UHGV virus genome: UHGV-0121047
Length of the DNA: 18,551 nucleotides
Direction: 5' to 3' (one strand)
Source of the DNA: a virus
Of this stretch, positions 12,258-12,461 are shown one piece after another. Made by a program: the position numbers and the translations under genes. Position 1 is the first letter of the stretch, and each line of letters starts with the position of its first letter. A model generated the notes under the pieces. That model did no database searches. It was not told the DNA's origin and saw nothing but the letters and a program-made list of their open reading frames with translations.

Positions 12258-12461
12258 AACCTTAGTTTTCGTTGCGTAGCGTCTATTTTGCAAATTTAAA
12301 ATAAATGCAAACGACAATGTTTTTCTGGCAGTAGCTTGATAGGCTAAACACCAGTGAGGTCTTCCAATCCCTCATCAAAGAATTTGGCGTACTAGCCCAC
12401 GGTATGATTAATAAGGTGGGCATCTTTAAGGGCTTTCTAAGAGAGTCTTTAAAGATAATTA

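Follow-up and report, generated by a model that had tools for sequence, protein, structure and literature searches.

A putative homologue of the message half of tmRNA in the tRNA-gene region of Felix O1-like phages

Between a tRNA-Ile gene and an aberrant tRNA-like gene, the phage DNA studied here (referred to as the window, 18,551 nt in its full length) carries a structured RNA of about 200 nt, at positions 12264-12461, which by its sequence is a homologue of the mRNA-like domain of tmRNA (ssrA), with the message half standing alone. tmRNA joins a tRNA-like and an mRNA-like part in one particle, either as a single RNA or as two base-paired pieces. Here, a lone message half is conserved, covaries in its helices and is apparently selected on the peptide that it specifies, and its carriers number hundreds of enterobacterial phages, prophages and phage-plasmids. 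We suggest that this tmRNA-derived message half could serve as a surrogate template in trans-translation, a reading for which we see about equal reasons to believe and to doubt.

Results

The locus and its predicted transcript

The window comes from a Felix O1-like myovirus (Felixounavirus), of which it represents the tRNA-gene region, and 270 phage records are at least 80% identical to it over positions 11900-12900. ARAGORN and Rfam each find 23 tRNA genes in the window, and 21 of the Rfam calls coincide with those of ARAGORN. The two found by Rfam only are 11463-11545 and the aberrant gene at 12462-12540. The first of these (Rfam tRNA, 45 bits) has an annotated tRNA-Asp at the corresponding position of Felix O1.

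The initial annotation described a tRNA-free segment behind a strong internal promoter, and both parts of this description hold. The stretch 12214-12461, flanked by tRNA-Ile (12138-12213) and the aberrant tRNA-like gene, is without an ARAGORN call or an Rfam call at the gathering score, and the promoter is the top sigma-70 match within 10500-16000, see Table 1. The other lineages have a promoter of their own, TTGACA/TTTACT-17-TAnnnT, lying a few bases upstream of the conserved heptamer GTTTTCG and at the same distance from it. Transcription would start at about A12264, and the 3' end would be set by the RNase P cut of the next tRNA-like gene at 12462.

For this predicted transcript, 12264-12461, the folding energy is -57.9 kcal/mol, compared with -41.1 +/- 4.1 on average in 200 dinucleotide-shuffled versions (z = -4.1), and no shuffle is as stable as the native sequence. 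The hairpin at its presumed 3' end differs in sequence in Felix O1 and is kept there as a hairpin, and long helices homologous to it, with variable inserts, are found in other lineages.

Table 1. Features of the message-half RNA and its surroundings, in window coordinates.
Feature	Position	Strand	Evidence
Sigma-70 promoter TTGACA-17-TATAGT	12229-12257	+	11 of 12 consensus positions
5' tail AGUUUUCGUUG with heptamer GUUUUCG (12265-12271)	12264-12274	+	conservation
A/U hairpin UAUUUU/AAAAUA, at the position of tmRNA PK1	12284-12289/12298-12303	+	fold, weakly supported
Resume consensus AAUAAAU	12300-12306	+	ARAGORN consensus, Rfam tmRNA models
Putative tag frame GCA AAC GAC AAU GUU UUU CUG GCA GUA GCU, then UGA UAG	12307-12342	+	ARAGORN and alignment
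Helix 5, CUGG/CCAG	12325-12328/12351-12354	+	98% of cells paired; stop codons in loop
H-type pseudoknot	12355-12387; S1 12355-12359/12370-12374, S2 12364-12367/12384-12387	+	covariation
Hairpin 3, GCCCAC/GUGGGC, conserved loop ..UGAUUAAUAA..	12395-12421	+	two-sided changes at every pair
Terminal hairpin, 16 bp, with AAUUA tail; presumed 3' end	12422-12461 (stem 12422-12437/12441-12456)	+	fold
D-arm-less tRNA-like gene, loop CUUCUAA, G3-U70, ACCA end	12462-12543	+	Rfam tRNA, 33.4 bits

A resume sequence and a tag reading frame

The segment begins its coding part in the manner of tmRNA. In the resume consensus, A12303 occupies the -4 position and is the equivalent of A86 of E. coli. The frame specifies the tag ANDNVFLAVA and closes with two stops; in length and in its first residues the tag agrees with that of E. 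coli, ANDENYALAA. The -4 base is A in all 62 distinct sequences, and the -5 base is U or C. This is consistent with experiments on E. coli tmRNA, where A86 is the key frame determinant and essential to the choice of frame and U85C is tolerated (PMC2481249).

All 29 distinct tags keep the 10-codon frame, reading AN[D/E]-x-x-[F/Y/L/V/C]-LAVA or ANDxxVLMAA, and every frame ends in a stop, often in two. Over these tags, the third position varies in 9 of the 10 codons, the first position in 4 and the second in 5, and the mean entropies at codon positions 1, 2 and 3 are 0.39, 0.42 and 0.905, a contrast that is inflated because the tags from IMG/VR were fetched with a pattern fixing the first and second positions of seven codons. 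The tags derived from blastn, an unbiased but small set of 14 sequences, show the same third-position trend, with synonymous changes such as GCA/GCU, AAC/AAU, GAC/GAU, GUA/GUG and GCU/GCC/GCG. The tag apparently evolves like coding sequence under selection at the peptide level, and it is from this pattern of evolution alone that we infer its translation.

There is no in-frame start codon for the tag, and an in-frame stop lies upstream of it in both cases examined, the window, where a TAG stands 12 codons before GCA, and an E. coli prophage (L003), where it is also a TAG. Another frame contains an ATG overlapping the resume codon; the peptides that it would give are unrelated between lineages, and CBA120 lacks it.

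Covarying helices and a pseudoknot

The structure was examined in an alignment of 14 sequences from six virus or plasmid groups. In it 92.6% of the cells pair and two-sided changes occur at 14 of the 22 pairs; the observed pairing, double changes and covariation score were reached by none of 500 shuffles, and in a control with slid partners pairing was at most 48%. The same structural support is obtained from 48 distinct IMG/VR sequences, for whose alignment S2 of the pseudoknot was left out of the search model. The initial annotation proposed a covariance analysis across related phages, and this analysis finds covariation in helix 5, both pseudoknot stems and hairpin 3 in both sets.

In helix 5 a G-C pair is replaced by A-U in IME11, Sf11 and KpS110 (CUGG/CCAG to CUGA/UCAG). 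S1 is paired in 100% of the cells of the 14-sequence alignment and in 99.6% of those of the 48-sequence one, and S2 in 94.5% and 92%, with three covarying pairs in each stem; S2 occurs as CCAA:UUGG, CCAG:CUGG and CCGA:UCGG. The core of the hairpin-3 loop, TGATT, is invariant in the 14-sequence alignment.

The two hairpins that were noticed initially are both present in the sequence, TTTGCA/TGCAAA at 12287-12292/12306-12311 exactly where it had been placed and GCCCAC/GTGGGC at 12395-12400/12416-12421, shifted by 2-3 nt. They differ in conservation: the second, our hairpin 3, has compensatory changes at all its pairs, while the first is not conserved in that register, and Erwinia phage Tian has TTTATC where the window has TTTGCA. 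In roughly this place, an A/U hairpin directly upstream of the resume codon is plausible as a model. It is common to the Ounavirinae and two IMG/VR lineages and is without covariation, its bases being invariant in the group of the window. The relatives of type B have a hairpin at the equivalent place, CUUUG/CAAAG, which by eye becomes UUAUG/CAUAA in IME11. The initial proposal of a small RNA or structured leader is strongly supported as to a structured RNA, kept across very different phage groups with four covarying helices, and missed the tmRNA-type resume sequence, the tag frame, helix 5 and the pseudoknot.

Could small proteins on the minus strand, such as RPN213_gp019, be the real product of this region? 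An ORF of 46 aa (12283-12423, minus strand) is indeed open in the window, and a "hypothetical protein" is annotated there in OL800606. However, the frame is interrupted by stop codons in Tian, P5026, Cba120, IME11 and pSTM_Phi, in the E. coli prophage it spans the region only in part, and conservation follows the helices and the tag frame of the plus strand. We find this explanation hardly credible, and the minus-strand "hypothetical proteins" annotated over the module are probably spurious.

Distribution of the module

The blastn searches used the module as it stands at about 12298-12422 of the window and gave 808 matches, from which 60 records were sampled. The carriers include Kolesnikvirus (phages of Erwinia and Salmonella), Ackermannviridae (CBA120, Taipeivirus), the N4-like Gamaleyavirus (IME11) and siphoviruses of about 47 kb from Klebsiella, Shigella or E. 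coli. In lambdoid prophages, the module lies between the Q antiterminator and the lysis genes. A match is found in 339 of 5,426 complete E. coli genomes (about 6%), and in 788 plasmids, mostly non-mobilizable ones of about 110 kb of the SSU5/pHCM2 type, pSTM_Phi included. A scan of IMG/VR for the tag pattern adds more than 120 contigs. The hosts of the carriers are E. coli, Salmonella, Klebsiella, Shigella, Citrobacter and Erwinia, and both virulent and temperate phages are represented. About half of the loci examined also have tRNA genes in the orientation of the module; these mostly lie a few hundred bases past its 3' end, and in one locus they precede it.

The pMT plasmid of Yersinia pestis, one of these plasmids, has an intact module (L026 601-699), with the tag ANEDTYLAVA. 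Its neighbour at about 400 nt is caf1R, which regulates the F1 capsule operon.

The distribution bears on whether the element does anything at all. An inert relic or spacer, being either a decaying captured fragment of ssrA or a leader that serves the processing of the tRNA precursor alone, would fit its place inside a tRNA cluster, with homing endonucleases and indels common nearby. Yet virulent myoviruses, N4-like podoviruses, siphoviruses, lambdoid prophages and phage-plasmids all have the module whole and with compensatory changes, its promoters are independent, and all 80 IMG/VR loci tested contain it complete, scoring 102-141 bits against the full model. We therefore regard an inert element as very unlikely.

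Similarity to tmRNA in sequence searches

Known tmRNA models match the element weakly. In a permissive Rfam scan, tmRNA (RF00023) scores 15.4 bits, far below its gathering score of 47 (E = 4e-4 in a search of 651 nt) and permuted tmRNA (RF04321) scores 20.3 bits, also against 47; both matches are centred on AAUAAAUGCAAACGACAA. In the opposite direction, a model built from the phage sequences only matches nt 76-190 of E. coli ssrA, i.e., the message region, helix 5 and PK2, with 16.5 bits (E about 0.03 in 128 kb), which offers weak independent support for homology. Two loci with weak matches to model R1 (L014 and L015), in which neither ARAGORN nor Rfam calls a tmRNA, were not counted as evidence.

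With default settings, ARAGORN calls no tmRNA in the window. At a relaxed threshold it reports the resume consensus and the tag ANDNVFLAVA with its two stops, filed as a permuted tmRNA. The "tRNA domains" of this permuted form (ARAGORN -ps) sit inside the genuine genes for tRNA-Lys (11979-12054) and tRNA-Ile, so the tRNA part of the call is an artefact. The genome announcements of Moogle and Felix O1 state that ssrA was identified using ARAGORN (PMC4319497, PMC4392139), presumably from the same relaxed call; such ssrA calls in Felix O1-like genomes are mis-modelled. Beyond these ARAGORN-based remarks, no description of the element was found in the searchable full-text literature. An exhaustive survey of viral and plasmid genomes reports ssrA solely in mycobacteriophages and Bacillus phage G, including a version in mycobacteriophage DS6A with the tRNA-like domain only, and the present element is absent from it (PMC4131195).

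The tRNA-like domain is not part of the conserved unit

The conserved unit does not include a tRNA-like domain. Nothing consistent was found, in the window or in related loci, as a strand complementary to the 5' end of the RNA or to GUUUUCG that could close an acceptor stem, and depending on the lineage a hairpin, a tRNA gene or a terminator closes the unit. What stands downstream differs accordingly. Felixounavirus has the D-arm-less "Arg-like" RNA there, Kolesnikvirus an ordinary tRNA-Leu(CAA) and the siphoviruses an ordinary tRNA-Arg(UCU); Ackermannviridae have two odd tRNA-like genes whose presence differs between close relatives, and the lambdoid prophage has, by eye, a terminator-like hairpin with a U run. 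A T-arm-like hairpin in the lambdoid version, inside a long helix, was rejected as a tRNA-like domain; it is confined to that lineage.

The Arg-like RNA at 12462-12543 has a 23-nt variable region, an encoded CCA and a UCU loop of the Arg type, together with an acceptor of the alanine type (G3-U70 with G2-C71, G4-C69 and A73). Among its homologues the loop CUUCUAA is invariant, G3-U70 is present in 6 of 7, and pairs 1:72 and 2:71 covary. The gene is variously annotated as tRNA-Arg, tRNA-OTHER or tRNA-TERM, and there is no ordinary tRNA-Arg in the window.

It can be speculated that the two neighbours form a split tmRNA, in which the upstream RNA would be the coding piece and 12462-12543 the Ala-accepting domain, made as one transcript and acting jointly through SmpB. 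In Felixounavirus the two genes lie side by side and are co-transcribed, G3-U70 is retained in most homologues while the two outer pairs covary, the RNA lacks a D stem as tmRNA does, and its 3' part resembles the 3' end of E. coli ssrA in a MAFFT alignment. However, the tRNA-like gene accompanies the module in Felixounavirus-type loci only and occurs alone, about 86% identical, in 7t3, where it has its own promoter, and in rV5-like, jumbo and ~110 kb Klebsiella phages, which are unrelated phages. It closes on itself and is an independent module. The module of the other lineages precedes ordinary tRNA-Leu or tRNA-Arg(UCU) genes, variable tRNA-like genes or a terminator, the invariant seven-nucleotide loop resembles a true UCU anticodon loop, and in one homologue G3-C70 replaces G3-U70. 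Leader and tRNA-like RNA have a single complementarity, AGCGUCU/AGACGUU, which was rejected as a pairing; it is lost in Felix O1, where the stem differs (by eye). We consider a split tmRNA quite improbable.

Genes for homing endonucleases (HNH or endonuclease VII) are inserted directly after the Arg-like CCA in Felix O1 and Klebsiella phage phi1_146058, and one follows it by about 20 nt in CRP22 (L004 26003-26395; L002 1247-1594; L027 598-1090). This points to a site of recurrent homing.

A 5' tail complementary to the host tag frame

The heptamer of the 5' tail is found exactly in 136 module loci, at 25-55 nt before the resume codon, and is missing from 2; its distance to the resume codon is variable, and its flanks vary. 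The tail of the window is complementary to nt 95-105 of E. coli ssrA, i.e., to codons 2-6 of the host tag, over 11 bp with one G-U pair, and GUUUUCG is fully complementary to CGAAAAC of the host frame (GAC GAA AAC). In 18 of 18 lineages tested the tail forms 7-11 contiguous pairs with nt 95/98-105, and in 17 of them this pairing is longer than the one with the phage's own tag frame. With tags that start ANE[E/D], the tail pairs also with its own frame (10 bp in pMT). In composition-matched shuffles P is 0.022 for at least 10 bp and 0.007 for at least 11 bp, values to be read with the 18 lineages not being independent and with several other candidate partners having been examined before host ssrA. 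Chance is only a modestly unlikely explanation.

The target is conserved in E. coli: the first 151 nt of ssrA are at least 99% identical in all 5,426 E. coli genomes, and we presume that the site is conserved in the other hosts from their shared tag ANDENYALAA. The type-B leaders contain a further complementary segment, GCGACU, which matches nt 86-91 with A86 and the resume codon among them. Two further comparisons with host ssrA were set aside. Whole-length RNAduplex predictions were uninformative owing to artificial full-length duplexes, and the match between the hairpin-3 loop UGAUUAA and UUAAUCA in the PK3-PK4 linker (6-7 bp, about 0.2 expected by chance) is not relied on.

Discussion

A proposed surrogate template for trans-translation

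We suggest that the tRNA-like domain is supplied in trans, most likely by the Ala-tmRNA of the host with SmpB, which would rescue the stalled ribosome. Translation could then resume on the phage RNA, and truncated proteins would receive a tag specified by the phage. In the most speculative step, docking, the tail AGUUUUCGUUG would pair with codons 2-6 of the host tag and mask the host template. Such a model reconciles selection at the peptide level on the template with the missing tRNA-like domain. We know of no precedent for a template that is joined to the tRNA-like domain neither covalently nor by a helix, and the message domain of the host should compete strongly with the phage template, as it is in the same molecule as the tRNA-like domain.

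In its fullest form, the proposal makes the RNA a parasite of ribosome rescue: the seed pairs with codons 2-6 of the host tag frame, and in some lineages with A86 and the resume codon as well, by which it masks the host template and tethers the surrogate to the Ala-charged domain and SmpB, and a tag ending in ...F/Y-LAVA replaces ...YALAA. We hold this form to be possible but doubtful. If true, the phage would reprogram, in infection or lysogeny, what becomes of proteins from stalled ribosomes, and trans-translation would have its first natural template that acts in trans.

The complementarity to ssrA nt 95-105, and that of the type-B GCGACU to nt 86-91, may also be read in the opposite way. 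The RNA would then be an antisense or decoy inhibitor, which blocks trans-translation of the host by pairing with its tag frame or by titrating SmpB or S1, with its own tag left untranslated. This would suit a module that has no tRNA-like domain attached, and there is a precedent in RNAs consisting of the tRNA-like domain only, which inhibit tmRNA, presumably via SmpB (PMC4131195). However, an inhibitor leaves unexplained why every lineage has the 10-codon frame, the stops, the A at -4 and the third-position bias, and antisense pairing alone needs neither helix 5 nor the pseudoknot nor a peptide-like pattern of change. We judge an inhibitor unlikely.

If the tag is translated, trans-translation accepts a template in trans and phages can rewrite the degradation tag of their host. 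If it is not, the RNA would be a new class of tmRNA mimic or inhibitor. Either outcome informs how phages handle ribosome stalling, e.g., after nuclease-based defence.

Comparison with known RNAs

The RNA shares with the one-piece tmRNA of E. coli the AAUA at -7 to -4, the tag start GCA AAC GA, the ten codons, the character of the tag (ANDxx-aromatic-...A), a stop in the loop of helix 5 and an H-type pseudoknot after it. However, its ends form neither an acceptor stem nor a T arm, it lacks P2, it has a simple hairpin where tmRNA has PK1, and it contains one pseudoknot in about 200 nt compared with three in 363 nt. The phage tags end in LAVA or LMAA, and that of E. coli in ALAA.

The two-piece tmRNAs of alpha- and beta-proteobacteria and cyanobacteria likewise have a coding RNA apart from the 3' CCA end. 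In those, the acceptor piece lies upstream and the coding piece opens with the 5' acceptor strand and the P2 strand that join the pieces, whereas the phage locus has no upstream acceptor piece. The ssrA genes of the Bxz1 group and Bacillus phage G and the RNA of DS6A are, like the present element, phage-borne derivatives of tmRNA, and DS6A has likewise retained one half. The Bxz1 group and phage G have a complete tmRNA and DS6A the tRNA-like half, while the present element is the opposite, the message half.

The species 1 and 2 RNAs of T4 resemble the element in context only, as stable RNA genes inside a phage tRNA cluster that are presumably released by tRNA-processing enzymes. We know of no tag frame in them, and no T4-type phage names occur among the 60 sampled blastn records.

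Further features of the region and its relatives

The long type-B versions (L003 6240-6310 and the equivalents in L008 and L070) have two downstream hairpins, GCGCAGGCUGAUGCGC and GCCGGAGAUCAGCGCCGGC, with the complementary loops GCUGAU/AUCAGC, which suggests a kissing-loop or pseudoknot domain. Part of this paired-loop region gives a weak rydB-like match.

In CBA120 (L007 830-1060; alignment A3) two tRNA-like genes follow the module. The first has a 7-bp stem with a GAAA tetraloop in place of the anticodon arm, G-A at 3:70 and a CCA end, and the second is an expanded form of 125 nt. Each gene of this type is precisely present or absent between close relatives in Ackermannviridae.

In the window, a second tRNA-like sequence at 12687-12775, called by neither ARAGORN nor Rfam, has an acceptor UGGGACG/CGUCCCA, a T arm GGGGUUCAACCCC and a loop CUUCCAA (UCC, Gly-type) with extra bases; Kolesnikvirus has a normal tRNA-Gly(UCC) in this place. 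Between the two tRNA-like sequences, positions 12588-12611 read UAGGGAGGUGGUCUGUAUCUCAUG, whose core GGAGGUGGUC and the 3' end of 16S rRNA can form a pairing of about 10-13 nt. Downstream of the module, the element is also conserved in Erwinia phage Tian (UUAAGGAGGUGGUCUGUAUCUC) and Klebsiella phage P5026 (GAGGAGGUGGUC). One possible reading is an unusually long Shine-Dalgarno sequence for a 7-codon ORF at 12609-12632, another is some other RNA element.

Just upstream of the tRNA cluster, 9286-10701 on the plus strand encodes a protein of 471 aa with matches to DUF2828 and DUF7788, labelled "RNA-binding protein" in the RefSeq record of Felix O1. DUF2828 is, we assume, related to the Ro60/TROVE fold, whose bacterial members presumably have the tRNA-like Y RNAs as partners, and the protein could be connected with the aberrant tRNA-like genes nearby.
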